Both the position numbers and the translations under genes were made by a program. From contig NZ_JBHYFK010000004.1 in the NCBI RefSeq assembly GCF_051859565.1, forward strand, positions 271,099 through 335,098: DNA of 64,000 nt, written 5' to 3'. Source of the DNA: Glycocaulis sp. GTDB taxonomy: Bacteria > Pseudomonadota > Alphaproteobacteria > Caulobacterales > Maricaulaceae. The notes under the pieces are model-generated. The model was given only the letters and a program-made list of their open reading frames with translations. It did no database searches and was not told the origin of the DNA. This document shows, one piece after another, positions 3,362-63,703 of the stretch. Every line of letters starts with the position of its first letter. Position 1 is the first letter of the stretch.

Positions 3362-3365
3362 GGGA

Positions 3366-5258: not shown

Positions 5259-5355
5259 CCACCCTCGATGTCGGGAACCTGCGCGCAGAGTTAACCGTTT
5301 CTCTCATGTTGAGCTGCCCGGAGACCCCGTGGCGGATCAGAAGGGAGAGGCAACG

Positions 5356-45755: not shown

Positions 45756-46661
45756 CTAGCCTGGCCACCGGACGTCCACCGCAATCGGACAATGATCCGA
45801 CGGGTGGCGCTCGCGGGGGCCAGAAAAAGTCGTTTCGAAGAACGAGCCATCGACCTTGAAACGGGCAGCCTCTTCGTTGAGCACCAGAAAATCGATGAAC
45901 TCGGCATAGCGCGGATTGCATCGAGGGCTGATCCCGGCGCCGGCAAGGCGCAGCGGTGCGGGGTCGCCGTCATTGAGATCGAGCCAGACGCTATCTCCTT
46001 CGACCTCCAGGCGCCTGTTGAAGTCACCGCCCACGATAACGCCACGGCCAGCGGCGCTGCGTTCATCAATCCAGCTTTCGAGAACCGGGACTTGATCGAA
46101 GAAGACCGGGCAGGCAGATGCGGCATCGCCGCTGAAGCAGCCTGATTTGAGGTGCACGCTCATCAGGTCGAGCGGCGCTTCTCCCGTCAGCGTGATGGCA
46201 ACACCCCAGCGTAGCCGGTCCTGACCTTCGACATCGAGTTCGGTAAGGGCTGGGAGGACAACATGGTCGATCCCGCGGCGCACTGCGATAGCGGTGGACT
46301 GCATGGTCAGGCGCGTGCCGTCGTCGCGGCCCCGGCACAGCGGGTAGTCATCCTGTTCGCCAGCCGGGCGGGCTTCGACGTGAAAAGTCCACTGGGAAGG
46401 ATCGAAGACACGCGCGAGTGCCGCCTCGTTCTCGATCTCCTGCAGGAGCCATATATCAGCGCCGACCTCATCGATAATGGCCGTCACGCGCTGATACCCG
46501 GCATCGTCGCGCGGCGCACACCCCATGCCGTTTTCAGCAGCAAGGTGCTCGATATTCCATGCCGCGATGCGTAGCCCGCCGGGTACAGGGGCCGGCGCAG
46601 ACGACCTCTCGCACGCGGTTACCAGAGCAAGCGCACCCAGCGCCGGAATCATCCATTTCAT
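45756..46661 (-). CDS. endonuclease/exonuclease/phosphatase (EEP) family lipoprotein
   Basis: MKWMIPALGALALVTAC lipobox. EEP motifs WNIEHL, LLQEI, GGDFN and PSDHCP. ggagg precedes the ATG. Confidence 0.87.
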   Translation of the reverse strand: MKWMIPALGALALVTACERSSAPAPVPGGLRIAAWNIEHLAAENGMGCAPRDDAGYQRVTAIIDEVGADIWLLQEIENEAALARVFDPSQWTFHVEARPAGEQDDYPLCRGRDDGTRLTMQSTAIAVRRGIDHVVLPALTELDVEGQDRLRWGVAITLTGEAPLDLMSVHLKSGCFSGDAASACPVFFDQVPVLESWIDERSAAGRGVIVGGDFNRRLEVEGDSVWLDLNDGDPAPLRLAGAGISPRCNPRYAEFIDFLVLNEEAARFKVDGSFFETTFSGPRERHPSDHCPIAVDVRWPG

Positions 46662-46977
46662 CGCGGGGACCTCCATTGATAGTGCAAGTATCGCGTGATC
46701 ACGTCAGGCCCGCTAGGCGCCATCAGCGATAATATGACGTTGCTATCCAGGTTACGGGGGCCTGTTCGCCGGATCTGTTCAATAGGCGTTCTAAACAGGG
46801 GGAGTATGGTCTTGGCCGCTCGCTCCCCCATGAGCGCTAATGTGTTGCCCGCGGACGATGGCGAACTCGGGTGCCGGATGGCGCAGCGCCCACTTACGTA
46901 TCGATCAGAGTGGTGATCGGTCCCAATATTCGCGGTTGCTGCGTGACTACTGCCCTCTGCCTGTTCGAGGACACTGG

Positions 46978-47980: not shown

Positions 47981-48424
47981 CTAGACCCGCTCCCGGTCAC
48001 CGTTTTCGATGGCTGGATCACAGGCCGCCAGCTCACCGGTCTGCCGGTGCCTGACGATTATCTGATAGCGGTATGACTTCATGATCTCGCACGCATCTTC
48101 AAGTACGACACTTCTGCGTTCTGGATCACCGAAGCTTACCTCGAAATCATCCGATTGCGGAAATATGGCGATTCCAGGCCAGATTTTCCCGTCCAGCTCG
48201 AACTCGTGGAACTCCCACTCCTCAGCCGCCAGTGCGAAAATGAGCCGTGTCGGATAGGTGATCTGGAAGTCGCCGGAACTGGCTCCGACATAGACTTTAT
48301 GGGCGGTCTGTGCGGCGCCGCCGGCTACTTCCTGATAGGGATAGACCCTTACCAGGATGTGCAGGACGTTGGGGCCTTCATGACCAGCGCCGGTAAAGAT
48401 ATCGGTATCGTTCCTAGCCTTCAT
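47981..48424 (-). CDS. hypothetical soluble protein (147 aa)
   Basis: Its start lies inside the upstream stop region (aATGAAGGCTAG). Beta-rich composition. The C-terminal ..ACDPAIENG.. is reminiscent of small D-P-x-I-x-N proteins, but this is not assignable by eye. Confidence 0.55.
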   Translation of the reverse strand: MKARNDTDIFTGAGHEGPNVLHILVRVYPYQEVAGGAAQTAHKVYVGASSGDFQITYPTRLIFALAAEEWEFHEFELDGKIWPGIAIFPQSDDFEVSFGDPERRSVVLEDACEIMKSYRYQIIVRHRQTGELAACDPAIENGDRERV

Positions 48425-50420
48425 TGTCTGTCCCTTCGGTATTTAGGTTCGACGCGGTCTCTGGAGCCTCGGGACGCGCCCAGAAACTCAGATAGTCGGG
48501 GCGCGCATAGCCCGCTTCTTCAAGCTCTGAGCGGATCGTCATCGCCTGATCACGCTCGCCTGCGAGCCAGTAAACGCGCGATGCCAGATCATTCATGCGC
48601 AGGTCGCCAATCAGATCGACATCGCCGATCAGCGCCATGGCTTCACGCAATACACGCTGCGTCTCAGGCCTTCCCAGCGCGATGAAGGCATCATGGCGTA
48701 GAAGCTGAGCCCTCAGGGCAAGCAGGCGCGCATTGGCGCGGCCCGCTTCCAGCTCGGATGTCAGACCGGCAAGTGCATTGGCCGCGCTGACAGCCGCCTC
48801 ATCATAAGCACCGGCCGCAAGCGCGACCTGACCGGAGAGAATGTCGAAACTGGCATTCTCCAGCACACGGCCGTCATAGCTGCCTTGCGGATCACGGCTT
48901 GCCCGCAGCCGCCGCGCCCGGTCGATCAGCAGCTGGGCGCGGATCAGCGCCGTATCGAATAGCGCCAGTTCGGCCCGGTCACGCTGCACAACCAGTAGCA
49001 GGCGCAGATAGCGCGCATTCTCAGGATCGCGTGCGGTGAGATCTTCCAGAAGCGATGCGGCCTGCTCCAGCGCCGCCGCGGCGCTGGCGGTGTCACCGGT
49101 GTCCACCCTTAGCGCGGCTTCGCCATGCACGGCGCTGGCCAGCCTGAATGCGGTGAGAAGATTGGCCGGTTCCTCGGCCAGCTGTCTGGCAAAAATTTCC
49201 CCCTCATCCCGGCGCGCATCGGCAGCTTCTGCCAGCTGGCCAGCGGCCCTGTAGGCGTCCGCTGTCCAGCCCAGCGCATTTGCCAGCTCGCCTGCATACT
49301 CACCGAACTCACCTTGCAGCGCCTCATAGCCAGCTCTCGCTACGCGAAGATCGTCGAGCGCCAGACCGGCCTCGCCACTCTCCAAGGCCATGACCGCCGC
49401 GTTCAGATGGGCGCTGGCTGCGCGCTGGCGTGCATCACGATTGTCCGGGGTGAGCGCCAGGAGCGCATCGGCATATTCCCGGCTTGTATCGAGCATTGCA
49501 CGCGCTCTTGCCATATCGCCGGCGCGATAGGCAGACACACCGGCTGATGATGTCAGTTCGGCAAAAGCCAGCAGGCTGCCAGCATCTGCCCGCAGGCCGG
49601 GCCCGCCCTCGCCTAGCGCCAGTGCCATTGAAAAGGCCTGCGCAGCACCTGACCGATCACCGGCAAGATCACGCGCCTCGGCAAGCCAGGTCAGCAGCCG
49701 CATTCGTCTGGCCACGTCATCGGGCGTTGGCGCAGGCGGCATGCCGCGTTCAAGGACGGCCTCTCCGGCTGCAATCATCACGCTCTGGCGGGCACTCGCC
49801 TGCAAGGGGGAAGCGATCTCGATCAGCTGGCTGTCCGCAAAGCGGATGGCTTCGGCCTCGGCAGCACGGCTGAGTTGCAGCTCGTTGCCCAGGTGGACGT
49901 TGAAAATTCCAAGCGCCAGGCAGATCGCCACGGCAGCCGTCAGTGCGATAAAAGAGCTGCGCAGATAAAGCCCGCGCCGTGTCCGGGGCACATTTGTGCC
50001 AGCCAAATCCAGAATCTTTTTGCCCACCGCATTGATATCGGCCGGCTCCCGGTCAGGGTAGATGGACCCCGCAAGAAATGGCGGCGGCAGAGACACGAGA
50101 AGCCCGTCCGGTCCGCGGTCGCAGGCGAGAACTGGCGGCAAGGCCGGCTCTTCGCTGCTGCCGCCAAGCTCTACGCGTACCAGGCGTTCGCGCGGCGCGC
50201 TCCGGAGAAATCCGGCAACAGCGCGGCTGACCGCAAGGTCTTCGACAGTCGCTTCCGAATAGCATACGACGAGCCAGCCGGGCACAGGATCGGTCTCCGC
50301 TTTCCAGCCAACGACGACCGGACTGCCCTGGCGCATCAGCCAGGCTGCAAGCCCCCACACGCGGGCACGGTCGCCGTCCGAACAGATCAGCGCGATGACA
50401 GCGGCGTTATTCATGGCCAC
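48414..50420 (-). CDS. single-pass membrane protein: TIR-like/flavodoxin-fold N-domain, TM, about 490-aa TPR-like helical-repeat domain
   Basis: The N-terminal AVIALICSDGDRARVWGLAAWLMRQGSPVVVGW..WLVVCYSE has a beta-alpha-beta pattern like TIR_2-type domains. RTRRG is followed by a TM (SSFIALTAAVAICLALGIFNV, residues about 156-175). An Ala/Leu/Arg-rich repeat region follows. Confidence 0.65.
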   Translation of the reverse strand: MAMNNAAVIALICSDGDRARVWGLAAWLMRQGSPVVVGWKAETDPVPGWLVVCYSEATVEDLAVSRAVAGFLRSAPRERLVRVELGGSSEEPALPPVLACDRGPDGLLVSLPPPFLAGSIYPDREPADINAVGKKILDLAGTNVPRTRRGLYLRSSFIALTAAVAICLALGIFNVHLGNELQLSRAAEAEAIRFADSQLIEIASPLQASARQSVMIAAGEAVLERGMPPAPTPDDVARRMRLLTWLAEARDLAGDRSGAAQAFSMALALGEGGPGLRADAGSLLAFAELTSSAGVSAYRAGDMARARAMLDTSREYADALLALTPDNRDARQRAASAHLNAAVMALESGEAGLALDDLRVARAGYEALQGEFGEYAGELANALGWTADAYRAAGQLAEAADARRDEGEIFARQLAEEPANLLTAFRLASAVHGEAALRVDTGDTASAAAALEQAASLLEDLTARDPENARYLRLLLVVQRDRAELALFDTALIRAQLLIDRARRLRASRDPQGSYDGRVLENASFDILSGQVALAAGAYDEAAVSAANALAGLTSELEAGRANARLLALRAQLLRHDAFIALGRPETQRVLREAMALIGDVDLIGDLRMNDLASRVYWLAGERDQAMTIRSELEEAGYARPDYLSFWARPEAPETASNLNTEGTDNEG

Positions 50421-51093
50421 CCCCTCCGTTGAGAGGGGCTGGTTGCAAGACCGGTTCAGCAGTTACAGCTTTCAACCCGCCTGTGAGCAATTCCCCGGCC
50501 AGATCCGTCAGATGAGAGGCCAGGGCCGATCGTTGCCCGGCTGAAAGCGGCGCTGCAGCGTACAGCAACTCAGCATAAGCAATATCGAGCTCACGAATGG
50601 AGCCAGGGTCAACCGGCACAAATGAGGTGATCGGCACACTCAAAATGCGCGCAATCTCCACCGCTTCAGGAAAGCTCGGATCGGCGCCATCATAAATCTG
50701 CATGAGGCGGGCAAGTCCCAGAAACTCAATCAGCTCCTGCTCCGCAGCGAGACCGCGATGGGATGCAATAAGCTGAATGCTCGCCCCGAAACTGGGTAAC
50801 GAGAATTTTCTGGTCGCCTCGTCGCCCCCTCCGGCCAAATCCCCAACCCGGTCAGCTGCCCCTAGAGAATCAATCATTTGTAGTAATTCACTTTTTACGC
50901 AACCCCCTACTGCCGCAATGCTACTTATACGTATAATTTCTGCGCTTACAACTACCGCGTAAATCGCATTACGGCGTCGATTGCAAACTCCTGCCAACAC
51001 CACTGCTCGGGGCTCACGGATAGCAGCCAAAGTGGCGCACTCGATGACAACCATTGAGGTCGGCCAGCGATAATTGCGTGATAACATCAGCAC
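50407..51093 (-). CDS. HTH (XRE-like) domain protein; true start probably Met73 (50877)
   Basis: ..IQLIASHRGLAAEQELIEFLGLARLMQIYDGADPSFPEAVEIARILSVPITSFV.. fits the HTH_3 pattern. The first 72 codons lie in the AT-rich cassette and look non-coding. The stop overlaps the next gene's start. Confidence 0.55.
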   Translation of the reverse strand: MLMLSRNYRWPTSMVVIECATLAAIREPRAVVLAGVCNRRRNAIYAVVVSAEIIRISSIAAVGGCVKSELLQMIDSLGAADRVGDLAGGGDEATRKFSLPSFGASIQLIASHRGLAAEQELIEFLGLARLMQIYDGADPSFPEAVEIARILSVPITSFVPVDPGSIRELDIAYAELLYAAAPLSAGQRSALASHLTDLAGELLTGGLKAVTAEPVLQPAPLNGGGGHE

Positions 51094-51143
51094 TCCGACA
51101 GTGGATGACCATTAAATCACTGCGCGCCTTACAGTATTTTATA

Positions 51144-51665
51144 TCAATTTACTAAAAGGACCGAAAATATAACCGCCACTAAATTTGACCCGAAGTGCAT
51201 AATGCTTAAACAAAAAATACTTTCTAAAAAATTATATTGAACCCGGTAATGCAAATAACACAAGGCGTACAAACCAAATGCCATGGCCGCTGATGTTGAG
51301 TGCACGAACCCATCGTGCATCAGGAACGCCACACACGGAACAACTATAATCGCAGCAAAAATGCGAAGGGCCTTATTAAATCTAAAAATTTCAATAATTA
51401 GTATTATAGCAGCCGACTCAACAATTGGGGCAAAAACCAATACAACAAATAGGCCGCCGCCGCCCCAAAGAAACGCCGAAAAATTAAATTGTATCAAAAA
51501 CTGTATTGCTGGTGCGAACAAAAACAACGATATAGCTGTTGTTAAAAGCTTTATTGCCGCGCCCAGAGAAATTATCTTCACCACAAAAAGTAGAAAACTT
51601 TTTTCTCTACGCAGAATAGAAGATGCCACTAACGTGGCATCTTCTGAACGGTCAAACCTAAGCAC
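51144..51665 (-). CDS. CPBP (CAAX/Abi)-like intramembrane protease family protein; candidate immunity protein
   Basis: Polytopic and AT-rich. The motifs are APIVES..EIFR (degenerate EExxxR), FLMH (FxxH; the classical second motif is FxxxH) and MHFGSNL (HxxxN). It lies immediately downstream of the double-glycine (GG) leader peptide gene. Confidence 0.5.
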   Translation of the reverse strand: MLRFDRSEDATLVASSILRREKSFLLFVVKIISLGAAIKLLTTAISLFLFAPAIQFLIQFNFSAFLWGGGGLFVVLVFAPIVESAAIILIIEIFRFNKALRIFAAIIVVPCVAFLMHDGFVHSTSAAMAFGLYALCYLHYRVQYNFLESIFCLSIMHFGSNLVAVIFSVLLVN

Positions 51666-51858
51666 TTCGAAGAGCCCTATCCTCAGACACGGACAGCTGT
51701 GGCCCTGCGTCCACTTGCCTGTTCATCCAATCGATAATTTCTCCGAGTTTCGAAGTGAAAGGAAGGTTCGCTTCATTACCAAAATCTTGCCAATTTTCGA
51801 ACCATGGGAATGCTCCACCGGAAACCAGAGCGACTTCATCAGCTTGAAGGGTTTTCAT
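51658..51858 (-). CDS. double-glycine-leader peptide precursor (bacteriocin/microcin- or pheromone-type), 66 aa
   Basis: The leader MKTLQADEVALVSGG has M(-15), L(-12), E(-8), V(-7), V(-4) and GG(-2,-1), matching the LSxxELxxIxGG consensus. ggaga lies about 8 nt before the ATG. A C39-ABC exporter and HlyD are encoded nearby. Confidence 0.7.
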   Translation of the reverse strand: MKTLQADEVALVSGGAFPWFENWQDFGNEANLPFTSKLGEIIDWMNRQVDAGPQLSVSEDRALRSA

Positions 51859-52020
51859 TACCTACTTCTCCAAAAATTGCTACTTGTTTGATCGCATTTG
51901 CAACCTCATGCACCCTACACACAACCGAAACGAGAGCAACTTTTTCAATTTTTGTTTCTTGTTTTAGTTGTGGAGAGATGTCTTTCTATCTTTTAGTGCA
52001 GCATGTTAAATGGAGCTTCG

Positions 52021-53250
52021 TCACGCACGCACCGCCATCACTGGATCGATAAACCATCGCCATAACGGGCGCCGGTCCACGATCACGTCGGCCATCACGG
52101 TCATACCGGCTTGCAAAGGGCGCTCGTCGCCATAGGCCGCCAATGCCTGTTGCCCAAGCTCCACCCGGAGCCGATATACCGGCTGGCTTACCGGAATAGG
52201 GCCGGCAACTTCGATTGGTGACAAGGCCGATGTCGAAATCTCGATCACATGCCCGCTCAGCGTACCAAAGCGCTGATAGTTGAAGGCATCGACGCGCAAG
52301 CGCACGTCCTGGCCGTTGGCGATGAAGCCCGCAGCACTCGTCGGCACCAGAAGATAGCCCTGGAGGACCTGGCCTTCGGGGAGTATGGCGGCTAGGGGTT
52401 GGTCCGGGCGCACCGTAGCACCCAGTTGGGCCTGTATGGCTGTGATCTGCCCGCTCACCGGAGCGCTGAGCACATAGCCGGCGGCGCGGTCCAACTCCTG
52501 GCGAGCCTGTGAGAGGGCAGCCGCTTCACTACGCAGCCGCGACAGAGCGATATCATGGTCCAAAGGAAGTTGTTCGAGGGCATGCTGGACTTCGCGCCGT
52601 TCGCTGCGCCGCTGGATGGTCAGCGCGTCGATATCCTCTTTCGATGTAAGCGCCGCCAAATAGCCCTGCCTGCGTTGATCGACATCAGCGCGCGGAGCAA
52701 AGCCGCGATCAGCGAGATCTCGCCAGCGGGCAAGCTGCGCCTCGGCGACTTCAACACTCTCGCTTGCAAGGGCGGCGCGGACCGTAAGACGGTCCAGTTC
52801 CGAGGCGAGTGAAATCAGACGCGCTTGCAGCCTTTCTTGCTGCTGGCTGAATTGTTGTGTCTGGGCTTCACGCTGCAACCGCAGTTCGCTGATCCGGCTT
52901 TCAATCTCAGCGCGCTGAGACGACGCTGAGCCACCCTCGGCCCCGAAAAGCTCGGTGCTCAGCCGGATGACCGGATCACCCGCCGAAACCGTTTGGCCTT
53001 CCTCGACGAATAGCTCTGCCACCACACCGCCGCCAACAGGGGTGATCGTAGCAATACCGCCCTCGGGCGCCAGATAGCCAACAACCGTTTCCTTGCGGGA
53101 GAACTCTGCAAAAATCACAAAGATTGCCACGCCGAACGTGATGGCGCTAAAGGCTAGCGTCATCACAGCCAGTATCCGTGGCTGCACAATCACCGCCTCG
53201 CCCATGCCTGTGTCGGATCTGGCTTCAAGAACTTCCCGCCGAAAAAGCAT
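52021..53250 (-). CDS. HlyD/CvaA-family membrane fusion (secretion) protein
   Basis: MLFRREVLEARSDTGMGEAVIVQP.. is followed by a TM, a lipoyl-like hairpin (GGVVAELFVEEGQTVSAGDPVIRL) and a long coiled coil. Confidence 0.9.
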   Translation of the reverse strand: MLFRREVLEARSDTGMGEAVIVQPRILAVMTLAFSAITFGVAIFVIFAEFSRKETVVGYLAPEGGIATITPVGGGVVAELFVEEGQTVSAGDPVIRLSTELFGAEGGSASSQRAEIESRISELRLQREAQTQQFSQQQERLQARLISLASELDRLTVRAALASESVEVAEAQLARWRDLADRGFAPRADVDQRRQGYLAALTSKEDIDALTIQRRSERREVQHALEQLPLDHDIALSRLRSEAAALSQARQELDRAAGYVLSAPVSGQITAIQAQLGATVRPDQPLAAILPEGQVLQGYLLVPTSAAGFIANGQDVRLRVDAFNYQRFGTLSGHVIEISTSALSPIEVAGPIPVSQPVYRLRVELGQQALAAYGDERPLQAGMTVMADVIVDRRPLWRWFIDPVMAVRA

Positions 53251-53333
53251 GCGGCCCGGCTCCCCTGTATTGACCCTGCACCTTCAGGATGTAGCAATCC
53301 AATAACCGGGGCAACGGCGGAAACCAATTATCC

Positions 53334-55445
53334 ATGATTGAAGAACTGTTCCATCGCGGACGGATACCAACGATTCTCCAGTCGGAAGCCTCTGAATGCG
53401 GGCTGGCCTGCCTGGCCATGGTGGCATCCCGGCATGGGCGCAGGACTAATCTTGCAGAACTGCGGGCAAAACTATCGCTGTCGTTAAAGGGCATGACGCT
53501 GCAGGGGCTCATGCAGGCAGCAGACGGTATGGGGTTCTCCTGCAGGGCCGTGCGGTGCGAGCTGGAGGAACTCGGTCAGCTCCGTCTGCCAGCGATCCTT
53601 CACTGGGATATGAACCATTTTGTGGTGCTGGCCTCGGTAAAGCGCGGACAGGCGGTTATCCATGACCCGGCACGGGGCCAGCGCGAGCTCTCTCTTGCTG
53701 AAGTGTCAAAGAGCTTTACCGGCGTTGCCCTGGAGCTGACCCCAACGCCGTTTTTCGAAACCAAGCGTACCGTTGCCACGCTCAAGCTGGGCGATTTCTG
53801 GTCACGCATCCGCGGGCTTTCGGGCAGTCTCTGGCAGCTCTTTTTCCTGTCACTCTTGCTTCAGCTCTTCGTGATCGTGGGGCCGCTGGTCAATCAGATC
53901 GTCGTCGATGAAGCGATTACCAAAGCCGATCTTGATCTTCTCAATACCGTGATCATCGGCTTCCTGATCCTAACACTCCTGCAGGTAGCCATAACGGCCA
54001 TACGCGGCTTTGTTGCCATGTATCTGGGCAATCTTATGACCTTCCAGATGCAGGCCAATCTGCTGCGGCATCTCATGCGCCTGCCGGCTGACTTTTTCGA
54101 AAAGCGCCATGTGGGCGCCATCGTTACACGCTTCCGCTCCATCGAGCCGATCCAGAACCTGATCACATCGGGAGTCATCGGGGCGGCGCTCGACGGGTTG
54201 ATGGCCATTGGCACGCTCATCTTCATGTTCTTCTATGCGCCAACGCTCACCCTAGTCGTGCTGGGTTTTCTCGCGCTGTACTTCATCGCGCGCTTTGCAA
54301 GCTTTCCCTATGTGCGACGTATGACTGAGGAACAGATCCAGACCTCGGCAGACGTTCAGTCGCATTTTCTGGAAACAATCCGCTCGATCCGCCCGGTCAA
54401 ACTCTTCGGCCGGGAAGAGCAACGCCATAATCGATGGCAGAACCTGTTTGCCACCAACCTGAACATCGGCATCCGGCTGGAACGGTTTGGAATCTGGTCC
54501 GGCTCCGGTCATGCGTTGTTATCAGGTGCGCAGACACTTATCGTTCTTTATCTCGGAGCACGCGCGGTCATCGCCGGAGACATGACACTCGGCATGCTGT
54601 TCGCATTCCAGTCCTACAGATCGTCGTTTACTGGCGCTGCGATCGGACTGGTGAACACGCTCTTTTCATGGCGGCTTGTCGGCCTCCATCTTGAACGCCT
54701 GGCCGACATTGCGCAGACCGAACCCGAAGAGCCGCAGGAAAAGCTTCCCTCCCTGCCCCAGAAGCTTCAAGGAGCAATCAGCGTACAAAATCTGCGTTTC
54801 CGGTATGGCGACCATGAGCCGTGGGTTATCGACGGTATCAACCTTGATATTGCGCCAGGTGAGAAGGTCGCCATCGTGGGCCGGTCGGGTGGGGGCAAGT
54901 CCACTCTGATGAAACTGCTTCTTGGTCTATATACCGCGCAAGAGGGCAGCATCGGCTACGATGGCCGCAATCTTGTTCATCTGGGACGGCGTGCGGTGCG
55001 CGCACAAATTGGTGTGGTGATGCAGGATGACCGCCTGCTCTCGGGTACGTTAGCGGAGAACATTTCCTTTTTCGACACAGCATTGGATATGCGCCATGTA
55101 GAGTGGTGCGCAAAGGCTGCAGCCATTCACGATGAGATCACCGCCATGCCCATGGGCTATCTCAGCCTTGTAGGCGATATGGGCTCGGCGCTGTCAGGCG
55201 GGCAGATACAGCGTATCCTCCTAGCCCGCGCGCTCTATAACAGGCCTTCGATCCTCATGCTGGATGAAGGCACGGCCAATCTCGACAAGCAGAGCGAGGA
55301 ACGGATTACACAGGCCCTTGCGCGAATCCCCGTCACGCAAATCATCATTGCCCATCGGCCACAGGCGATAGCGTATGTCGATCGGGTAATGGAGATGTCT
55401 GATGGACAACTTCGAGCGTCGGGCTCAGAGCAAACGGCCCAATAA
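53334..55445 (+). CDS. peptidase C39 domain-containing ABC transporter (bacteriocin/microcin exporter, CvaB/ComA-like)
   Basis: N-terminal ..IPTILQSEASECGLACLAMVASRHG.. is the C39 catalytic Cys context. Six TM segments. Walker A GRSGGGKST, signature LSGGQIQR and Walker B ILMLDEGT. Confidence 0.95.
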   Translation: MIEELFHRGRIPTILQSEASECGLACLAMVASRHGRRTNLAELRAKLSLSLKGMTLQGLMQAADGMGFSCRAVRCELEELGQLRLPAILHWDMNHFVVLASVKRGQAVIHDPARGQRELSLAEVSKSFTGVALELTPTPFFETKRTVATLKLGDFWSRIRGLSGSLWQLFFLSLLLQLFVIVGPLVNQIVVDEAITKADLDLLNTVIIGFLILTLLQVAITAIRGFVAMYLGNLMTFQMQANLLRHLMRLPADFFEKRHVGAIVTRFRSIEPIQNLITSGVIGAALDGLMAIGTLIFMFFYAPTLTLVVLGFLALYFIARFASFPYVRRMTEEQIQTSADVQSHFLETIRSIRPVKLFGREEQRHNRWQNLFATNLNIGIRLERFGIWSGSGHALLSGAQTLIVLYLGARAVIAGDMTLGMLFAFQSYRSSFTGAAIGLVNTLFSWRLVGLHLERLADIAQTEPEEPQEKLPSLPQKLQGAISVQNLRFRYGDHEPWVIDGINLDIAPGEKVAIVGRSGGGKSTLMKLLLGLYTAQEGSIGYDGRNLVHLGRRAVRAQIGVVMQDDRLLSGTLAENISFFDTALDMRHVEWCAKAAAIHDEITAMPMGYLSLVGDMGSALSGGQIQRILLARALYNRPSILMLDEGTANLDKQSEERITQALARIPVTQIIIAHRPQAIAYVDRVMEMSDGQLRASGSEQTAQ

Positions 55446-55526: not shown

Positions 55527-55709
55527 TTATACAAAGTTGCCAAGAGGTTGCACCCAATCGCGCTGTGGCATCTGCTCTAGTTGTAGTCTATACGCCAAGT
55601 CTCCAGCTTTTCGCAGGCGCCGGTAAGGCTCATGAACCAATTTGCGGGCACGCGGATTAAGTTCGCTGCCACGAACCGTACTCCGATTCAGCGATCTCCT
55701 CATTGTCAC
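55527..55709 (-). pseudogene. 60-codon ORF in the position of the RES-domain toxin; too short to be intact
   Basis: ATGA overlap with the upstream DUF2384 antitoxin gene, but only 263 nt separate that gene from the converging ABC gene. RES domains need about 150 aa or more. Confidence 0.35.
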
Positions 55710-56116
55710 CGACCTCCGCTCTCAGCATCCAGGTATTCGCGTATGCGGACGACAGAGGCGATATCGCCCTGCTTCATTATCTCGACAGGTGTGAAGCCAC
55801 CCAAAACCTGATTTGGCTTTTTGACCCAAGCATATCCGCGCCAGGGATCCGTAAAGAGGTGGCGAAGCCGTTTTTGGATGCCCAAGAGCAAAGAGAGCCG
55901 CATAGCTAGTCCATAATCGATATGTTCAAGCTTGCCCTGTTTCCAGCGCGCGAAGGTGCTTGATGACAGACCGCCGAGTATTGCACAGGCCTCATCGTCG
56001 GTAAGCGTCCATTTTTCAAACAACCGGACGGCAGTGCGTGCCAATGCAGCCGCTTCGGCTTCGGTTATGAGAGGCTCATCGGGTGCCGCCTTGGTGCGTG
56101 AGCTGTCTTCGCCCAT
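55706..56116 (-). CDS. MbcA/ParS/Xre-type antitoxin (DUF2384)
   Basis: ..ACAILGGLSSSTFARWKQGKLEHIDYGLAMRLSLLLGIQKRLRHLFTDPWRGYAWVKKPNQVLGGFTPVEIM..VVRIREYLDA is the typical DUF2384 pattern. Confidence 0.8.
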   Translation of the reverse strand: MGEDSSRTKAAPDEPLITEAEAAALARTAVRLFEKWTLTDDEACAILGGLSSSTFARWKQGKLEHIDYGLAMRLSLLLGIQKRLRHLFTDPWRGYAWVKKPNQVLGGFTPVEIMKQGDIASVVRIREYLDAESGGR

Positions 56117-56269: not shown

Positions 56270-58504
56270 CTAGCCGGAATAATAGCTGCGGTAATTCTTG
56301 TAGTAGTAGGACGAGCCTTCGTAGCCATAACGGGCCTGCGCATCCATATCGACCTGCGCGAGTGTGACCCCCAGGACATTAGCTCTCACATCGCCCAGAA
56401 TATCGAGCGCGCTCCTGGCAGCTTCACGCGGGGTGGTCTTCCATTTGACGTTCATGATGACCGCATCGGCGCGCGCGGCGATGACGCGGGTATCGGTCAC
56501 GGCCAGAACAGGCGCTGTATCGATTAGCACCAGATCATAACGCTTCCGCAGACTGGCGAGGAGCGATCTGAAGGCATCGGAGCTGAAAACATCGCGCGGT
56601 GTGTACTGCGACTCCACGACGGGGAGAATATGCAGACCACGCTCGGCGTCCTCGGTCAGGACGTCCTCCAGCGAACACTCCCCGGCAAGCACCTCCAGCA
56701 GGCCTCTGGATGCGCCTGGCACGGCCGCCTTGGTCAGCAGGCGCCGGCGCAAATCACAATCGAGGATGATCGTAGTGGAGCCTGCCATGGCCGATATCCG
56801 GCCCAGCGAATAGGTCGTGGTCGTTTTGCCCTCGCCGGGCAGAGCCGAGGTGATGGCCACCACTTTATGGACCTCATCGATATTGGACAGGAGTATGGCC
56901 GAGCGGATGACACGGAACGCTTCAGCGATCCCTGACAACGGGTTCTCGCGAATATAGTCGAAAGGCTGGCTGCCGGCCGGCAATTTGCCTTGTCCGAAGC
57001 GCCCGCGTGCGAGCATCGGGACAGAGGCGATATGCCCGGTGCCCAGTTCGCGTTCGACATCGGCTTCAGTACGCACGCCGTTATCAAAGGTCTCGAGCAG
57101 GAAGACGGCCCCTACCCCCATCATGCCGCCCAGGACCAGGCCAAGGGCCAGATTGAGCAGCCAGTTGGGCGAACTGGCTTCCAGGGGTATGGCGGCGCGC
57201 GCGACGATGCGGGCATCGGCCGTTGCCAGCTCGTCCTGCTCGCTGGTCTGACGGAAGCGGTTGAGGAAGGACTCAAAGAGTGTGCGTGAGGCCTGGGCCT
57301 CACGCTCCAGTTCACGCAGGCGCACCAGAGCCCGGTTATTGGTAATCAGCTCGGTCCTGAACCCGGAGAGCGTGTTCTGCAAGGACGCCACGCGCTGGCG
57401 CGCGACATTCACCTCGGTTTCCAGCCCTGCGATAATGCGCTGTATCTCCCGGTCAATCTGCTCTTCCAGATCAGCCACTTCACGTTCGACGGCCAGGAAT
57501 TCGGGGTGGCGCGGGCCATAGCGCGAGGAAAGATCGCTCCGGCGCCGGCTGGTCTCGGTCTGCTGGGCGCGCAAGGCCCGGATCGTTTGCGAGCGCAGCA
57601 CCTCCCCGATCGTATCAAGCGATGCGCCGCGCTGGAGCTGGGTCTGGACACTGCGCAGGGAGGATTCCGCTGCCGACAGCTCGGCGCGCTGAATGGCCAG
57701 CTGGGCATTGAGATCCGCGATCTGCTGCTCGGTCAGATTACTCCCGCCCGCATCGAGAAGGCCCTGTTCGGCGCGATACATTTCCACGGCCTGCTCGGCG
57801 GTACGGACCTCTTCGCGCAGGACTTCCAGGCGCTGATTGAGCCAGGTATTGGCCCGCTCGGTCGCATCGAACCTGGCTTCAAGCTGGGAGAGCAGATAGA
57901 GGTCAGCAAAGGCATTGGCGATGCGCGCTGCCTTCGCCGGATCTTCAGAGGCAAAACTGATACCAATGACGTAAGTCAGCCCCGACCGGCGCGCCGTCAG
58001 CCGGCCAATGACCGTATCGGTTACCCGTTCAAGAGCCGGGTCTTCATCACTGCCATCGCCGGCGGGGACGATCTGAGAGGGCAAAAGTGCCGTGACAAAG
58101 CCTCGCACACCCGCGATCACACCGCCCAGGCCAGAGGGCTCACGAAGCGCGCTATTGAACTCAGGATCGGAGACAAGATCGAGGGAACGCACAACACTCT
58201 GGGTCAGGGACCGGCTCTGAATGAGCTGAACCTCGGTATCGATGGCCGCCGCGTCCGATCCCACCCCGCTCAGGACCGCTTCCATATCGATAATCTGTGA
58301 ACGGCGCTGATCGATGATGACGCTCGCGGTGGCGGTATATTGCGGCGTCATCTGCATGGTGACGATGATGACCAGCGCAAAGACGGCAAAGGCCACTGCG
58401 ATGAGCACCGGCAATCGCCGGCGGAAAATGCGGGCCAGATGACGCAGATCGATCAGATCGTCACTGCCTGCCGCTTTACCCCTGCCAGGATCTGCCTGCA
58501 CCAT
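56270..58504 (-). CDS. polysaccharide biosynthesis tyrosine autokinase (Wzc/ExoP-like)
   Basis: GumC/Wzz N-domain with two TM segments and a coiled coil. C-terminal kinase with Walker A SALPGEGKTTTT. Tyr-cluster tail YGYEGSSYYYKNYRSYYSG. Confidence 0.92.
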   Translation of the reverse strand: MVQADPGRGKAAGSDDLIDLRHLARIFRRRLPVLIAVAFAVFALVIIVTMQMTPQYTATASVIIDQRRSQIIDMEAVLSGVGSDAAAIDTEVQLIQSRSLTQSVVRSLDLVSDPEFNSALREPSGLGGVIAGVRGFVTALLPSQIVPAGDGSDEDPALERVTDTVIGRLTARRSGLTYVIGISFASEDPAKAARIANAFADLYLLSQLEARFDATERANTWLNQRLEVLREEVRTAEQAVEMYRAEQGLLDAGGSNLTEQQIADLNAQLAIQRAELSAAESSLRSVQTQLQRGASLDTIGEVLRSQTIRALRAQQTETSRRRSDLSSRYGPRHPEFLAVEREVADLEEQIDREIQRIIAGLETEVNVARQRVASLQNTLSGFRTELITNNRALVRLRELEREAQASRTLFESFLNRFRQTSEQDELATADARIVARAAIPLEASSPNWLLNLALGLVLGGMMGVGAVFLLETFDNGVRTEADVERELGTGHIASVPMLARGRFGQGKLPAGSQPFDYIRENPLSGIAEAFRVIRSAILLSNIDEVHKVVAITSALPGEGKTTTTYSLGRISAMAGSTTIILDCDLRRRLLTKAAVPGASRGLLEVLAGECSLEDVLTEDAERGLHILPVVESQYTPRDVFSSDAFRSLLASLRKRYDLVLIDTAPVLAVTDTRVIAARADAVIMNVKWKTTPREAARSALDILGDVRANVLGVTLAQVDMDAQARYGYEGSSYYYKNYRSYYSG

Positions 58505-58643
58505 ATCCGTCTCTACCTCTTAAAATACCTGACGCGCCCGGCTGGCACCCGCCCATGATAAACCGCTACAGGCTCCTATTATAAAAAGGAGCCTGTCCGC
58601 GATAGCCAGAGCTTGCAAAAGGGGACCCAGAGCCATTCAGCGC

Positions 58644-59954
58644 CTAGTATTGCAGCACCAGGCCCAGCGTGAAGCGATTGACGGTGAAATCCCGGTTGGC
58701 CGCTGCGCCTGACGAGGTCTGCTCGAAATGGCTGTAGGATGCGCGCAAGCCCATATTGCGGTTCATCAGATAGGTCGCCTGGGCGGTCGCGCCCCAGCGC
58801 TCATCTTCCCGGTCAATGCCCTGATAATCATCACTGCCATAATCGAGGCGGCCGGTGAGGATGACATTGCGGCGAAGCTCATGATCAAGCTGCGCCGAGG
58901 CCGCAGTACCGACATAGCCTGCTGCGGCGGCAATGCCGGAATCTTCGATACTGCGCTGGGCCGTGAAGGTCAGCGTGGTAAGCTGGGTGGGGAACCACTC
59001 GATCAGGCCGTCAATGCTGAAACCGTTAACATTGGCAAAGCCCGGACTGTCATAGTCCTGCTTCATATAGCCAAGGCCGAGCTCGCCGCGGGCAAGTCCG
59101 CCCAGATCAAACTCGACGCCCGCATCGACGGTGTATCCGTTTGAATCGCGGTTGAGCGGCACGGCGGGCGGCGAGAGGCGATGGTCGCGTTCATTATGGC
59201 GATAGCGCACAAACAGCGCGGTATCCGGGCTGATCGCATAGTCTGCGCGCAGCGTGTAACGGTGCAGATCACGATCCCGGAACCCTTGCGAGGCGACACC
59301 CCCGCCAATCAGGGCAGCATCGTCATAATCGCTGCGCGAGAAGTCATAGCCGCCGCGCAGGCGCAGACGGTTGAACACATGATCGCCGCCAAGGGCAAAG
59401 CTCGTCGTGTCAAACCGGATCGGCTCGGCCGCAGAGCCTGCTGCGCCAGCAGAGGTGCGCGGTTCAGTGGCACGGCTGTGGGAGGCAGAGAGGTTCACAG
59501 CTGTGCCGCGCGCGACATCAAGCCGGCCCGCTGCCCCGAATGTGTAGTCGGTCGTGCTCTCCGACCCGAAATCGGCATACTCCCGGGCCACGACATTGGC
59601 AAAGGCATTGAAGGCGTGATTGGACCAGGTTGTATCCATGGTGATCGAGGGGTTGATCACGAAAATGGTGTCGGACTGTTCTGCTGTAGCCGTGGCAAAG
59701 ATGTTGTCGTTGAACTCGACACCCAGATCAGCGCGGGGCCGGAAGATGAAGGCGCCAGCGCGCACGCCCAGCGCGTCATATTCAGGCCGTGGGCGCTGCA
59801 TGACCGAGATATTCCGGTCGCGGTCCCACAACCATTGGGCGGAGGCTTCGCCGCTGATGATCACGCCTGACCCGGCAGCAGAGATCAGCATTATCGCCGT
59901 CAGACCTGCGCCCGTTACCCGCTTGTCATTCCTGCCCGCCATTGCGGCCCCCAA
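58644..59954 (-). CDS. outer-membrane beta-barrel protein (EPS-locus associated)
   Basis: Signal peptide ..GVIISGEASA-Q. Alternating beta-strand pattern. Terminal ..FTLGLVLQY. Confidence 0.7.
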   Translation of the reverse strand: MGAAMAGRNDKRVTGAGLTAIMLISAAGSGVIISGEASAQWLWDRDRNISVMQRPRPEYDALGVRAGAFIFRPRADLGVEFNDNIFATATAEQSDTIFVINPSITMDTTWSNHAFNAFANVVAREYADFGSESTTDYTFGAAGRLDVARGTAVNLSASHSRATEPRTSAGAAGSAAEPIRFDTTSFALGGDHVFNRLRLRGGYDFSRSDYDDAALIGGGVASQGFRDRDLHRYTLRADYAISPDTALFVRYRHNERDHRLSPPAVPLNRDSNGYTVDAGVEFDLGGLARGELGLGYMKQDYDSPGFANVNGFSIDGLIEWFPTQLTTLTFTAQRSIEDSGIAAAAGYVGTAASAQLDHELRRNVILTGRLDYGSDDYQGIDREDERWGATAQATYLMNRNMGLRASYSHFEQTSSGAAANRDFTVNRFTLGLVLQY

Positions 59955-60047
59955 TTGTGATGCAGACCCATGCCCCGCCCGATACGGAGCACGTCATTCG
60001 GTGTCAGCCCTGGCGCGCTTTGGGCGCTACCCGGCCAATCGGTGCTC

Positions 60048-60482
60048 TTAGTAGTCAGAACCACCGCGCCCGCCGGGAGGAGGCGGAGGAGGGGGCACAG
60101 GCGCACCGCTAGCCGGACCGCCCGGAACACCGGCCACACTGGATGTGCTCAGCTGCCCGGAAACGCTCTGACTGGCCGCCTGAGCGGCAGGGCTTGCCAT
60201 CACCGGATTTGACGCTGCGATCGCGAGGGCCGCGGCTGCCGTAGCGCTGTCAGCACCCGAAGCAACAATCGCTGCGATGATTGCCGCTTCAATTTCGTCA
60301 GCGCTAGCATCGGGGCCAACGGCCGCGACTGCCGCGACAATAGCGTCAGCGACTTCCTGCGCCCTTGGCGCTTCCTGGAGGAATGCAATGGCGTGCGCCG
60401 AAACACCCAGGCCCAAAGCCGGCAAAGACCCCAGCGCTACCGCGCTCAGCGCGGCTTTCGGCAGTTTCCAATCGAGTTTCAT
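60048..60482 (-). CDS. secreted Ala-rich protein with polyproline/Gly-Arg tail
   Basis: Signal peptide MKLDWKLPKAALSAVALGSLPALGLGVSAHA. Ala-rich repeats. Tail ..APVPPPPPPPGGRGGSDY. Confidence 0.5.
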   Translation of the reverse strand: MKLDWKLPKAALSAVALGSLPALGLGVSAHAIAFLQEAPRAQEVADAIVAAVAAVGPDASADEIEAAIIAAIVASGADSATAAAALAIAASNPVMASPAAQAASQSVSGQLSTSSVAGVPGGPASGAPVPPPPPPPGGRGGSDY

Positions 60483-61161
60483 GGCGGAATCCCTCATCCT
60501 AAAGTTTAATTATCATACCAGATACACCGGCCCCTCGCTAGCGCCGCAAAGGTGTTTTCGAGACGAAACGGCCCCAACACCCCGCCAACCACCATGTTTT
60601 GATGCGGTGCAGCGTAAATGTCACATGCGAAGCCACTGGCCGGTGAGTGTCGCACAGAGGGCACGGGTGATCATATCAAGGCGAATCGTGATCTGTTGTC
60701 CAAGTATTGGCGTTAACCAACAAAAGTTCGCGCCGGTTATGAGATCGTTAGGCTTCGATAGGGCAGAGTTTCGGCGTCTTTAGTCTTGCAGGAGCAAGAA
60801 TGATGCGTGCAGAAAAGCGCAAATTGCCTGATCAGGAGACTCGTACGCCGTGTCCGGTCTCTGAGAAACCGGTAAGCCTTGCCGCCGCCACAGAGGCCAC
60901 GCTGGATGTCGGCCCTTCGCCGGCACGTGCGCTCCAGCAGCAGCTTGCCGCTGGCTTGGCACTCGGCAGCGATATCGGTTTGGACATCGGGGAACGCTGG
61001 TCCAGGCGCCGCTCACTGGCCGTCCTGCTTGTCAGCAATGGCCTGTTCTGGGTTTGCGCGGCATGGGGCCTTTCACAACTGCTCTAGCCAGTGCGCAATT
61101 GCAAGGCAGGCCGGACGCCAACGCCGCTTCCACCTTCAATCCGGTACACCACCCAAATCTA

Positions 61162-63063
61162 TCACAACGATCCGCCCAGCAGCTCTTCCAATGCCGCACG
61201 CATGTCGGCAGGCGCATCTTCGCCAAAGTTCTGGAGCCAACGCCGGTCGGCGCGGCGCCCGACGAGCACCAAAGCCTGGGACAGAGCTTGGCGGCGTATA
61301 CCCTCATCAAGCTCAGCCCAGGCCAAAGCCGTAATCTGAAGACGCCAGCGCATGATGTCGCGTGCGCCATAAGGGCTGAGGTAAAAACTTTGCGCGAGCG
61401 CCTCCTGGCCATCTGGCGTCAACCGCCCGTGCCGTGCCATGTCGATATAGACGAGCCGGTTCCAGGCCGTGACGAGGCGGGGCTCGCGTTCAAGTGCCCC
61501 GCGGGTGGCACGTTCAGCAAAATCCAGATCATGAATATCCGCCTCAATGGCACGCGAAGCGATAGCTTCGCGCCAATAGGCGGACGGGGCAAGCGCGTCT
61601 CTTGCTGCAATCTGGGCGATGGCCTCCGGACCAAGACGGTAGGCGGCATTAGCCTCAAGGCGCAGCTGGCCCTGCCATCCCAATGCGCCTGCCAATCCTA
61701 ATGCCAGAACCGACAGCCCGGCCCTTGGCGCCCACCGGGCAAGCAAGCCGAGCTGCGCGCGCCGCCTGACATCCCCCTGGCGGGCTGCCCGCCCCCCTGC
61801 CCCGACCGCGCAGCCAAGACCCAACACCCAGGCCCACCACCACATAAAGCCCGGCACTTCGAGAGCGTAGTCGGTAAGCGCATGCAGCAGGACAAGGATG
61901 GAGATACAGATCACGGCGCGCAGATATACCTGCTCTTTGCGGCGGCGGCGCAGACCGCGCATAACGGCCATGACGAGCGCGGCAATGACCGCTGCCATGG
62001 CAAGAGTGCCGGCCCAGCCCATCTGCAAGAGCCATTGCAGGTAAACATTATGCGCCGCGCCCTGGTTACCGAGTATCGCGGCATTGCGGCTGGTGGCGAT
62101 GAGGTCGTTGACGAAGCCAAAACTGCCAAGGCCGTGGCCCCATAAGGGCGCAAGCGGCACGGCTTGCCAGTACGCAGCAAAAAGCGTCTGGCGGGAGGTA
62201 TCATCAAAGACCCGGTCAAACCGGCTGGCGGCGAGCTCGCCTGATACGGTCCAGACAAGGCCAGCCAGTACCAGGAACGCCGCGCCGCTGCCCACGGCGA
62301 GGCCAAGGCTGCGGTGCGCTGCATTGCTCTGGCGCGACCAGGCGTAGATCTGCCAACCAGTCAGCAATAGTGCAGCAAACCCTGTGAACGCGATGCCGGC
62401 GCGCGAGGCGGTCAGGACAAGGCAGGTGGCAGGCAGGAGGGTGGCGACAAGGGCAAGGGAAAGCGCAATAGCGTGCCGGGACACGCCCTGGTCTCTGGTA
62501 CTGGCCCGCCGGATCCAGGCAAGCAGCTCGGTCAGGCCCATCAGGCTGATCAGGCCAAAATAAGTTGCAGCGGTATTCGCAGAGAGAAATCCGCCCGACA
62601 GCCTGTCGCGGTGGTAAGGCCGTTCGACCCCCCACAGATGGTCCGGCGACAGGGTGAAGTCTAGAAACGACCAGATCGCGATGATGACACCGGCGGCCAG
62701 GCTGGCGCGCCAGACCCATACTGCGCCGCCTGAGATGCGCGCACTATTACGGGCGACAAGCCAAAGTGCGCCAGCCGCAGCAATTGCTCCGAAATCGGGA
62801 CCGCCTGTATCAACATGTCCGCGCGCTACGAGCAAAATGGCGAGCGCCCCCAGTCCGGCCACGCCAATCCAGATACCAGGCGTCGGCCGCTGGGTGTCCA
62901 GACACAGAACACCAAGAGCCGCGACCAATAAGATCGCGCTCGAAAAATAGGCTTTGGCTGCCGGTATGTCGGCGCCAAAAAACACCGCCGCTGCCCCAAT
63001 CAGCGCAAGAAGCAATCCCGCAGGAAACAGGAGCTGCAATCCTGTGTGGGTATCCTGGTGCAT
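61162..63063 (-). CDS. O-antigen ligase/polymerase family protein with about 200-aa soluble helical C-terminal extension
   Basis: About 10 or more TM segments with a Wzy_C-like loop, followed by a helical-repeat C-terminus. The start is trimmed to MHQDTH to avoid overlap with the upstream gene. Confidence 0.75.
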   Translation of the reverse strand: MHQDTHTGLQLLFPAGLLLALIGAAAVFFGADIPAAKAYFSSAILLVAALGVLCLDTQRPTPGIWIGVAGLGALAILLVARGHVDTGGPDFGAIAAAGALWLVARNSARISGGAVWVWRASLAAGVIIAIWSFLDFTLSPDHLWGVERPYHRDRLSGGFLSANTAATYFGLISLMGLTELLAWIRRASTRDQGVSRHAIALSLALVATLLPATCLVLTASRAGIAFTGFAALLLTGWQIYAWSRQSNAAHRSLGLAVGSGAAFLVLAGLVWTVSGELAASRFDRVFDDTSRQTLFAAYWQAVPLAPLWGHGLGSFGFVNDLIATSRNAAILGNQGAAHNVYLQWLLQMGWAGTLAMAAVIAALVMAVMRGLRRRRKEQVYLRAVICISILVLLHALTDYALEVPGFMWWWAWVLGLGCAVGAGGRAARQGDVRRRAQLGLLARWAPRAGLSVLALGLAGALGWQGQLRLEANAAYRLGPEAIAQIAARDALAPSAYWREAIASRAIEADIHDLDFAERATRGALEREPRLVTAWNRLVYIDMARHGRLTPDGQEALAQSFYLSPYGARDIMRWRLQITALAWAELDEGIRRQALSQALVLVGRRADRRWLQNFGEDAPADMRAALEELLGGSL

Positions 63064-63124
63064 GTCGATAACCGATCCGACGCGGTGAATATTTTTTGGT
63101 GGCTGTCCGGAACCGAGCCCAAAC

Positions 63125-63703
63125 CTAGAAGAAGCGCTCGCCAATTCGGATCGTATCACCAGGCTGGACGGGCGTGCTCACCGTCAGGGGAAACTCTTCC
63201 TCCTGCGCCGCGCCGGCGCGCTTGATGAAAACGCGCCGTGTGTTCGCCCGGTAAGAAAACCCGCCAGCGGTGGCCACGGCATTCACAACCGTAAGGCCGG
63301 AGGTAAAGGGATATTCTCCGGGCTCACGCACTTCGCCCATTATATAATAGGGCCTGAAATTCATGACCTCGGCGCTGACACGCGGATCATTGAGATAGCC
63401 TTCGCTGAGGGAGGATTCTGCCGCTCTTTGAAACTCGCGAAGGGTTAGCCCGCCAGCTCGCACCTCGCCGATGAGCGGCAAGGACACAGCCCCGCTGCCA
63501 TCAACAGTATACTCGCCTGACAAGGCGTCCTCACCAAAGACGATCACGCGAAGCCGGTCACCGGAGCCGAGGCGATACTCGCTGACTTCACGCAGTTCCT
63601 GGGACGCCGGCGCAAGATCTACGCTTACCTCGCTGGTCGTACCTGTGCTGACGCAACCGATTATGAAGAGCCCAGCAGCCAAAGCGGCAATCATGCGCAC
63701 CAT
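63125..63703 (-). CDS. polysaccharide export protein (Wza/GumB-like)
   Basis: MVRMIAALAAGLFIIGC lipobox. YRLGSGDRLRVIVFGEDALSGEYTVDGSGAVSLPLIGEV (Poly_export) plus an SLBB region. The start is chosen after gagggga. Confidence 0.8.
   Translation of the reverse strand: MVRMIAALAAGLFIIGCVSTGTTSEVSVDLAPASQELREVSEYRLGSGDRLRVIVFGEDALSGEYTVDGSGAVSLPLIGEVRAGGLTLREFQRAAESSLSEGYLNDPRVSAEVMNFRPYYIMGEVREPGEYPFTSGLTVVNAVATAGGFSYRANTRRVFIKRAGAAQEEEFPLTVSTPVQPGDTIRIGERFF

Follow-up and report, generated by a model that had tools for sequence, protein, structure and literature searches.

What does the four-gene locus at positions 51,144 to 55,445 of a 64,000-nucleotide (nt) stretch of a Glycocaulis sp. genome (contig NZ_JBHYFK010000004.1; the whole stretch is hereafter called the window) export, and what is the exported product for? 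The locus consists of a gene for an ATP-binding cassette (ABC) exporter and, in the opposite orientation, genes for an HlyD-type adaptor, a precursor peptide of 66 amino acids (aa) and a polytopic membrane protein of 173 aa. All four open reading frames (ORFs) had been claimed by an initial annotation, which attributed to them the content of a class II bacteriocin or class II microcin locus, and all four were recovered in the ORF table on the strands and at the coordinates listed in Table 1. In this study, we provide evidence that this content is indeed present (exporter, adaptor, double-glycine (GG) peptide and adjoining membrane protein), and we propose, as a reading that the sequence makes rather probable, that the locus is of the class II microcin type and encodes an unmodified double-glycine bacteriocin in a Glycocaulis-like marine alphaproteobacterium. 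As far as sequence comparison goes, the peptide gene and the gene that probably confers immunity make up an interchangeable cassette, for which public data hold hardly any relatives.

An exporter with a complete C39 catalytic site and its adaptor

The exporter had been predicted to be a divergently transcribed ABC protein with an N-terminal C39 peptidase domain, and profile searches matched all three parts of it: PF03412 Peptidase_C39 (residues 11-138, E = 5.4e-38), PF00664 ABC_membrane (1.3e-46) and PF00005 ABC_tran (3.5e-30). Its translation carries the nucleotide-binding motifs Walker A GRSGGGKST, signature LSGGQ, Walker B ILMLDE and H-loop IAHR. When the C39 domain was compared with the PDB by phmmer, it matched LahT150 (6mpz, 3.4e-24) and the peptidase-containing ABC transporter (PCAT) PCAT1 (4ry2, 8.9e-15). 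A check for the Cys/His/Asp triad found it present in these alignments, with C22, H95 and D111, as well as the oxyanion Gln Q16, aligned with the catalytic residues of PCAT1 and LahT150, the stretches NHFVV and IHDPA aligned with their His and Asp motifs, and C22 facing the position that is Ala in PCAT1 entry 7n87. In HlyB, whose domain is C39-like, a Tyr stands where the exporter has the catalytic Cys; because C22 is kept, the protein appears to be an exporter of the cleaving type and not of the RTX type, and an assignment to the HlyB-type exporters of RTX proteins was rejected.

Among NCBIfam models the exporter scored best with TIGR03796 (522 bits against a cut-off of 853), TIGR01846 reached 461 bits against 726, and TIGR01193 also matched, all of them below cut-off. 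The adaptor had been called CvaA/HlyD-type, and the profile searches agree: it matched HlyD_3 (PF13437, 8e-16) and TIGR01843 (2.2e-47; 162 bits, under the subfamily cut-off of 208.65), besides HlyD_D23 (PF16576, 2.6e-09) and Biotin_lipoyl_2 in Pfam, and a hydrophobic segment is visible at the N-terminus of its translation. Since the NCBIfam scores stay under the equivalog and subfamily cut-offs, exporter and adaptor are regarded as generic members of their families and not as named orthologues. Of all NCBIfam models, those of the NHLP/Nif11 export systems (TIGR03796/TIGR03794) gave the ABC protein its best scores (2e-156), and the adaptor was matched by them as well (3e-20), but the window scores lie far under the curated cut-offs (522 against 853 and 72.5 against 156 bits), and this assignment was rejected because every score fell short. 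NHLP/Nif11 leaders are moreover long domains, whereas the leader encoded here is a short GG leader of 15 residues.

The precursor peptide and its leader

The description of the 66-aa ORF as a precursor with a textbook GG leader holds. The leader MKTLQADEVALVSGG presents L-12, E-8, V-7, V-4, G-2 and G-1, in agreement with the pattern of double-glycine leaders (15-18 residues, hydrophobic residues at -4, -7 and -12, an acidic residue at -8, and G followed by G, A or S at -2/-1), and the core then starts with AFPW. When all six frames of the 64-kb window were scanned with a regular expression for such leaders, this ORF alone was matched, the match lying 162 nt past the stop codon of the HlyD gene, against 0-2 matches in each of 20 shuffles (mean 0.2), and a GGAG Shine-Dalgarno sequence ends 9 nt upstream of the peptide ATG; judged by these counts, the leader is more than a chance match.

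The predicted core of 51 aa (5855 Da, isoelectric point 4.3, net charge -4, grand average of hydropathy -0.55) has no Cys and 3 Gly without a GxxxG run, and the precursor ends in SVSEDRALRSA. With a core below 10 kDa and genes beside a PCAT and an adaptor, its size and context are those of class II microcins, and by its sequence the core is neither of the glycine-zipper type nor obviously of a pore-forming one. Two narrower assignments were rejected. A class IIb (siderophore) microcin does not fit, as the C-terminus is not of the Ser-rich type and no glycosyltransferase or esterase genes lie nearby, and a peptide like those of the Cdz bacteriocin system (see below) does not fit for lack of a glycine zipper, although length and leader agree. 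An AlphaFold2 (AF2) model of the peptide alone was uninformative (predicted local distance difference test, pLDDT, 56).

Neither the peptide nor the 173-aa protein matched the curated libraries Pfam and NCBIfam, and PADLOC was likewise empty. Homologue searches with the peptide yielded one 98% identical relative, present on 13 marine contigs (Tara, JGI, Logan), and a metagenome scan with the peptide alignment added only one further Tara contig. Conservation of the small ORF had been named as a check on its reality, and it was found: with a Tara contig 91-93% identical as the comparison partner, four of the five changes that separate the peptide gene from that of Tara contig L001 (ERZ2772601 NODE_47) are synonymous and one is non-synonymous, a pattern by which the peptide ORF can be said to be under purifying selection. 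The 173-aa gene, compared in the same way, also behaves as a coding sequence, with 26 of 37 differences at third codon positions. On the opposite strand a 202-aa ORF (51283..51891, +) overlaps the peptide and membrane-protein genes and is open in L001 too; because this substitution pattern favours the minus-strand genes, it is most likely a shadow ORF.

The adjoining membrane protein and the CPBP question

The GTG start of the 173-aa gene lies inside the peptide ORF, which the gene overlaps by 8 nt, and its product is a candidate immunity protein, putatively coupled in translation to the peptide. A polytopic protein in this downstream, overlapping position is what the initial annotation had reported; its further label, CPBP/Abi, fared less well. 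PF02517 gave no match to the protein even at E<=10, and motif 1 reads E-S without an Arg. An AF2 model built from a six-sequence alignment (pLDDT 75, seven helices) had a best Foldseek E value of 3.3 against the PDB, in a search run without a positive control, and Rce1 was not listed; a sequence profile of the family gave no PDB match at E<=10 either. Word-indexed and exhaustive homologue searches returned only near-identical Tara/JGI copies and four remote membrane-protein relatives.

Within the family alignment A2 (the window protein, P0001 and P0003-P0006), P80, E83, F130, Y137, R141, H157 and N161 are invariant, and the window protein carries APIVES (E83), H117 and HFGSN (H157, N161) in CPBP order; the other members likewise have a His near position 117. 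Of CPBP motif 1 (EExxxR) the family keeps PIVE[ST], in which only E83 is invariant, the second Glu is absent and there is no Arg at +5; motif 2 appears as FLMH, with FxxH spacing against FxxxH; motif 3 (HxxxN/D) is present as HFGSN, with both H157 and N161 invariant throughout A2. Full-length matches to PF02517 below threshold were obtained for the remote relatives P0003 (0.0028; 18.4 bits against a gathering cut-off of 22.4) and P0005 (0.19), hhalign placed the three motifs of A2 in register with those of five genuine CPBP proteins (E = 7e-4, 26% probability), and UniRef names the Glycocaulis albus homologue a CPBP family intramembrane protease. Together these matches suggest that the 173-aa protein is probably a degenerate derivative of the CPBP fold and not a demonstrated member of the family.

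Variable cassettes at a conserved exporter

The exporter is shared with close relatives. Its ABC protein is 96% identical to that of G. albus, which bears out the alphaproteobacterial setting first suggested, 92% identical to that of Alkalicaulis satelles, which like G. albus has a different cassette, and 72% to that of a Maricaulis metagenome-assembled genome (MAG), and the next relatives, from Pseudoalteromonas, Microvirga, Shewanella, Berkiella and others, are about 48% identical. G. albus (L011) has an intact exporter, and its adaptor and ABC genes show 91% DNA identity to those of the window. For the three genes that follow the cassette the value is 82%, and homology ends at window position 55412. 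Between the same flanks lies a different insert of 3.2 kb and low GC content, which encodes a peptide of 89 aa with the textbook leader MRKLSSAEMEIVCGG, a membrane protein of 135-140 aa, a remnant of the insertion sequence (IS) IS3 and a HigBA pair. The membrane protein is homologous to the 173-aa protein (25% identity, E = 1e-5), and the two cores share scattered residues (F..E.W..F, PF[ST], G.IIDW and DRA.R; E = 0.018), the shared motif being spaced as PF[ST]..G.IIDW.

Tara contig L001 carries no ABC gene, and its adaptor gene has been cut short by IS3. An 891-nt unit made up of an IS3 fragment and the adaptor 3' end is repeated there with 99.4% identity between copies, and a cassette follows each copy, one of the window type and the other with the leader MRELSLKELCLVTGG, a glycine-zipper core and an overlapping 97-aa membrane protein; the glycine-zipper peptide (1054..1473 of the contig) is Cdz-like. 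IS3 copies and a HigBA pair flank this two-cassette array (1..5400), which could represent orphan cassettes without an exporter or an artefact of metagenome assembly. A small membrane protein thus follows each GG peptide in G. albus and in L001. The Maricaulis MAG (L013) carries yet another GG peptide, together with an IS66-type transposase. This peptide (2970..3260 of its locus) lies on the strand opposite to the adaptor gene, has a Pro/Asp/Gly-rich core with three Cys, and adjoins a 304-aa protein without a Pfam match and the IS66-like transposase.

The comparison of the window with L001 is mosaic. Identity is 71-80% in the adaptor gene from 52270 to 52091, 83-100% per 60-nt block from 52090 to 51011, and about 82-83% in the flanking genes, so that one junction of the cassette falls in the last ~70 nt of the adaptor gene. 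Because the cassette is 90-100% identical to the L001 copy and the flanks are about 82% identical, it has moved between lineages more recently than its surroundings. Different cassettes of a GG peptide and a membrane protein at one and the same position are what toxin-immunity cargo would be expected to look like, and the comparison supports this view.

The wider exporter family and known systems

A wider survey took in 80 exporter loci retrieved by homology to the ABC protein. Roughly half of them have, close to the exporter, at least one ORF whose leader is of the GG, GA or GS type, a few of the regular-expression matches being clearly false. In five loci (L058, L068, L065, L078 and L077) the GG-peptide genes have as a neighbour a genuine Rce1-like/CPBP protein of PF02517 (1e-16 to 2e-22), which in three of them (L065, L078 and L077) comes directly after the peptide gene; to judge from these profile matches, the arrangement of GG peptide and CPBP protein that the initial annotation proposed does exist in this exporter family. 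Two Pseudoalteromonas loci have tandem arrays of five to eight near-identical short ORFs downstream of the ABC gene (L018 12650..13630; L022 12690..14520), each joining a GA-type leader to a core some 21 residues long, e.g. GSFSVKYTKGDESLEITYQW, and also carry two short GG peptides containing Cys and Pro. These multi-copy precursors look unlike classical microcins.

Parker et al. 2025 (PMC12219008) have argued that class II microcins are common and widely distributed in Gram-negative bacteria, and they describe the immunity proteins as small membrane proteins encoded beside the microcin. With microcin V, the class IIa paradigm (CvaA, CvaB, CvaC, Cvi and an unlinked TolC), the window locus shares a C39-ABC exporter and an HlyD-type adaptor, a GG leader of about 15 residues, a precursor below 10 kDa, the absence of modification genes (here among the neighbours scanned), a membrane immunity gene (here a candidate) beside the toxin gene and the lack of an outer-membrane channel in the cluster (here among the matches listed; PMC12219008). 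It differs in that the ABC gene is divergent from the adaptor, peptide and immunity genes, the core is unrelated, hydrophilic, anionic and without Cys, the candidate for immunity is polytopic, CPBP-like and 173 aa long, and the host is a marine alphaproteobacterium.

A closer parallel in layout comes from a stalked alphaproteobacterium, Caulobacter crescentus, whose cdzABCDI genes are a characterised contact-dependent bacteriocin system with a type I secretion ABC protein and adaptor, two divergent operons and TolC encoded elsewhere (PMC5380434). The Cdz proteins are small glycine-zipper proteins with a leader ending in G[G/A/S], their immunity protein is transmembrane, and Cdz-like clusters found bioinformatically in other bacteria are often flanked by transposases (PMC5380434). 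The window locus likewise has an ABC protein and adaptor for type I secretion, two divergent units, a GG-type leader, a small transmembrane immunity protein (again a candidate) and no TolC among the matches listed for its ORFs. However, its peptide is single and has no glycine-zipper motif, such a motif being present in the sister cassette of L001, and its candidate immunity protein has not been reported as related to CdzI. Because Cdz is characterised, class II microcins are widespread (PMC12219008) and about half of the 80 exporter loci have GG peptides, the statement of the initial annotation that such loci are essentially uncharacterised in marine or stalked Alphaproteobacteria was overstated. 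What is new lies in the cargo sequence and the host group, not in the kind of system.

A third comparison is offered by class II bacteriocin loci of Gram-positive bacteria in which the immunity proteins are of the Abi/CPBP type (PF02517), e.g. PlnI and SkkI (Kjos et al. 2010, cited in PMC8692603). Set against these loci, the window locus is alike in that a GG peptide gene is directly followed by a gene for a polytopic protein with CPBP-type motifs, and unlike in that this protein fails the Pfam model and its motif 1 is without the second Glu and the Arg.

Genomic surroundings

The locus lies inside a region of lower GC content (0.51-0.60, against 0.62-0.66 for the genome), in which the peptide and membrane-protein genes mark the minimum (0.38-0.45). 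The region begins at a tRNA-Ser gene followed by an integrase gene (Table 1), and from the integrase to about position 47000 the GC content is 0.57-0.60 and the genes include those for proteins of 284, 358 and 463 aa without Pfam or PADLOC match. This stretch resembles a genomic island. No att-type repeat of the 3' end of tRNA-Ser turned up when one was looked for.

Table 1. Features of the peptide export locus and of the region upstream of it (window coordinates)
Feature	Position	Strand	Remarks
PCAT ABC exporter, 703 aa	53334..55445	+	C39 peptidase, transmembrane and nucleotide-binding domains
C39 double-glycine peptidase domain, exporter residues 11-138	53364..53747	+	Q16, C22, H95, D111
Intergenic gap between HlyD and ABC genes, 83 nt, divergent	53251..53333	none	ORF coordinates
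HlyD/CvaA-type membrane fusion (periplasmic adaptor) protein, 409 aa	52021..53250	-	Pfam, NCBIfam
Putative exchangeable cargo cassette	51006..52090	-	~70 nt of HlyD 3' end, AT-rich spacer, peptide gene, membrane-protein gene, ~140 nt 3' flank
Precursor peptide gene, 66 aa	51658..51858	-	ORF table, Shine-Dalgarno, GG leader
15-residue leader of precursor, MKTLQADEVALVSGG	51814..51858	-	Leader motif
Predicted 51-aa core, AFPWFENW...ALRSA	51661..51813	-	Residues after the double glycine
Polytopic membrane protein, 173 aa, candidate immunity protein	51144..51665	-	ORF table; GTG start
tRNA-Ser(GCT)	35947..36037		Start of lower-GC region
DUF6538/phage-integrase gene	36166..37431		Directly after tRNA-Ser(GCT)
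Endonuclease_NS protein	44007..45038		Family match
Exo_endo_phos protein	45756..46676		Family match

Directly downstream of the cassette and on the same strand are three genes (47981..51093, -) for proteins of 147, 668 and 228 aa, the last of which is 169 aa long in relatives. They are about 82% conserved in G. albus and L001, even where the exporter is destroyed, and none of the three products matched Pfam, NCBIfam or PADLOC. On the other side, just past the end of G. albus homology at 55412, a gene for an Xre/ParS-type antitoxin (55527..56116, -; PF09722 and PF20432) is accompanied, in the place where a RES-type toxin would be expected, only by a 60-aa ORF without family match, and may be what is left of a truncated toxin-antitoxin pair at an insertion junction. 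Further on, 56270..63772 holds a cluster for exopolysaccharide export and assembly (Wzz/GNVR/AAA_31 tyrosine-kinase-type protein, BBP2_2 beta-barrel porin at 7e-112, Wzy_C and Poly_export/SLBB), which is unrelated to the peptide locus.

The gap between the HlyD and ABC genes presumably holds the promoters of both divergent units. A scan of it for the sigma-70 consensus gave no match, and consensus scans for promoters and terminators yielded nothing useful.

Bacteriocin, signal or remnant

If the locus is a bacteriocin locus, its working would be as follows. The 15-residue leader of the precursor would dock on the C39 domain of the exporter, and the C22/H95/D111 triad would cut after Gly15. The 51-aa anionic, Trp-rich core would then be exported, driven by ATP, through the ABC-HlyD complex and a TolC-like channel encoded elsewhere, and would act on close relatives without the cassette, the producer being protected by the co-translated 173-aa membrane protein, putatively a degenerate relative of CPBP/Abi proteins. 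Recombination at the adaptor 3' end would let the peptide and immunity genes pass from one lineage to another. The neighbouring ORFs scanned included no modification enzymes.

Several observations weigh against this reading. The core is a hydrophilic, anionic peptide that has no Cys and is not rich in Gly; it thereby differs from several classical class II microcins, which are glycine-rich and hydrophobic, and from the glycine-zipper proteins of Cdz (PMC5380434). The 173-aa protein has no curated family match, and the genes of its remote relatives P0003, P0005 and P0006 do not adjoin GG peptides or exporters, so that the wider family does not seem to be dedicated to bacteriocin immunity. The window cassette persists in a Tara population beside an IS-truncated adaptor and without an exporter. 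Finally, as the initial annotation had said of a TolC-like partner, no TolC-type PF02321 is among the matches listed for the window ORFs scanned, although one of these listings gives the 25 best families, so that a weak match could be hidden.

Alternatively, the exported peptide might be non-toxic, a signal or other extracellular peptide such as a pheromone of the sort that the ComA transporter carries, with the 173-aa protein acting in maturation or sensing. Some CPBP/Abi proteins, e.g. MroQ of S. aureus, do act in the maturation of peptide pheromones. The competence-factor transporter ComA is among the PDB matches of the exporter, the hydrophilic and anionic character of the core would suit such a role, and PCATs are reported to export quorum-sensing peptides too (PMC10986499). 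However, no histidine kinase or response regulator is adjacent among the ORFs scanned, the degenerate CPBP motif 1 (E-S, no Arg) does not favour protease activity, and the cassette is hypervariable among close relatives and travels as a pair of peptide and membrane protein, which fits toxin and immunity better. We therefore consider a signalling role unlikely.

Less likely again is that the locus is a silent or decaying remnant acquired horizontally, with genes that are intact but unexpressed or non-functional. Its place in a low-GC region downstream of a tRNA-Ser gene and an integrase, the failed consensus promoter scan, and the Tara relatives with an IS3-truncated adaptor and no ABC gene on the contig all point that way, but none of the four window ORFs is shortened and the catalytic motifs are intact, most substitutions are at third codon positions, and the exporter of G. 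albus, 91% identical at the DNA level, is intact. That the 66-aa ORF is a chance ORF and the exporter substrate is encoded elsewhere is very improbable: the peptide has no curated family match and is overlapped by the antisense ORF, but its leader match is unique in the window against an expectation of 0.2, it is preceded by a Shine-Dalgarno sequence, it is 98% conserved as a protein with four of five changes synonymous, and a divergent homologue stands at the same position in G. albus.

Returning to the bacteriocin reading, it is conceivable, if doubtful, that marine prosthecate Alphaproteobacteria have a microcin family of their own, Trp-rich, anionic, hydrophilic and unmodified, with the core and its relative in G. 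albus as first members, whose uptake or target would be unlike that of the known pore-forming class II microcins, whose immunity would rest on a catalytically degenerate CPBP-derived protein, and whose cassettes would spread by recombination at the adaptor 3' end. Because architecture and mechanism are those of the class II microcin and Cdz type, the locus adds an entry to the catalogue of such systems and does not open a new line of enquiry. Should the peptide prove active, it would provide a sequence-novel pair of bacteriocin and immunity protein from the poorly studied marine group Maricaulaceae, and a clear case from nature of cargo cassettes being exchanged while the exporter stays conserved.

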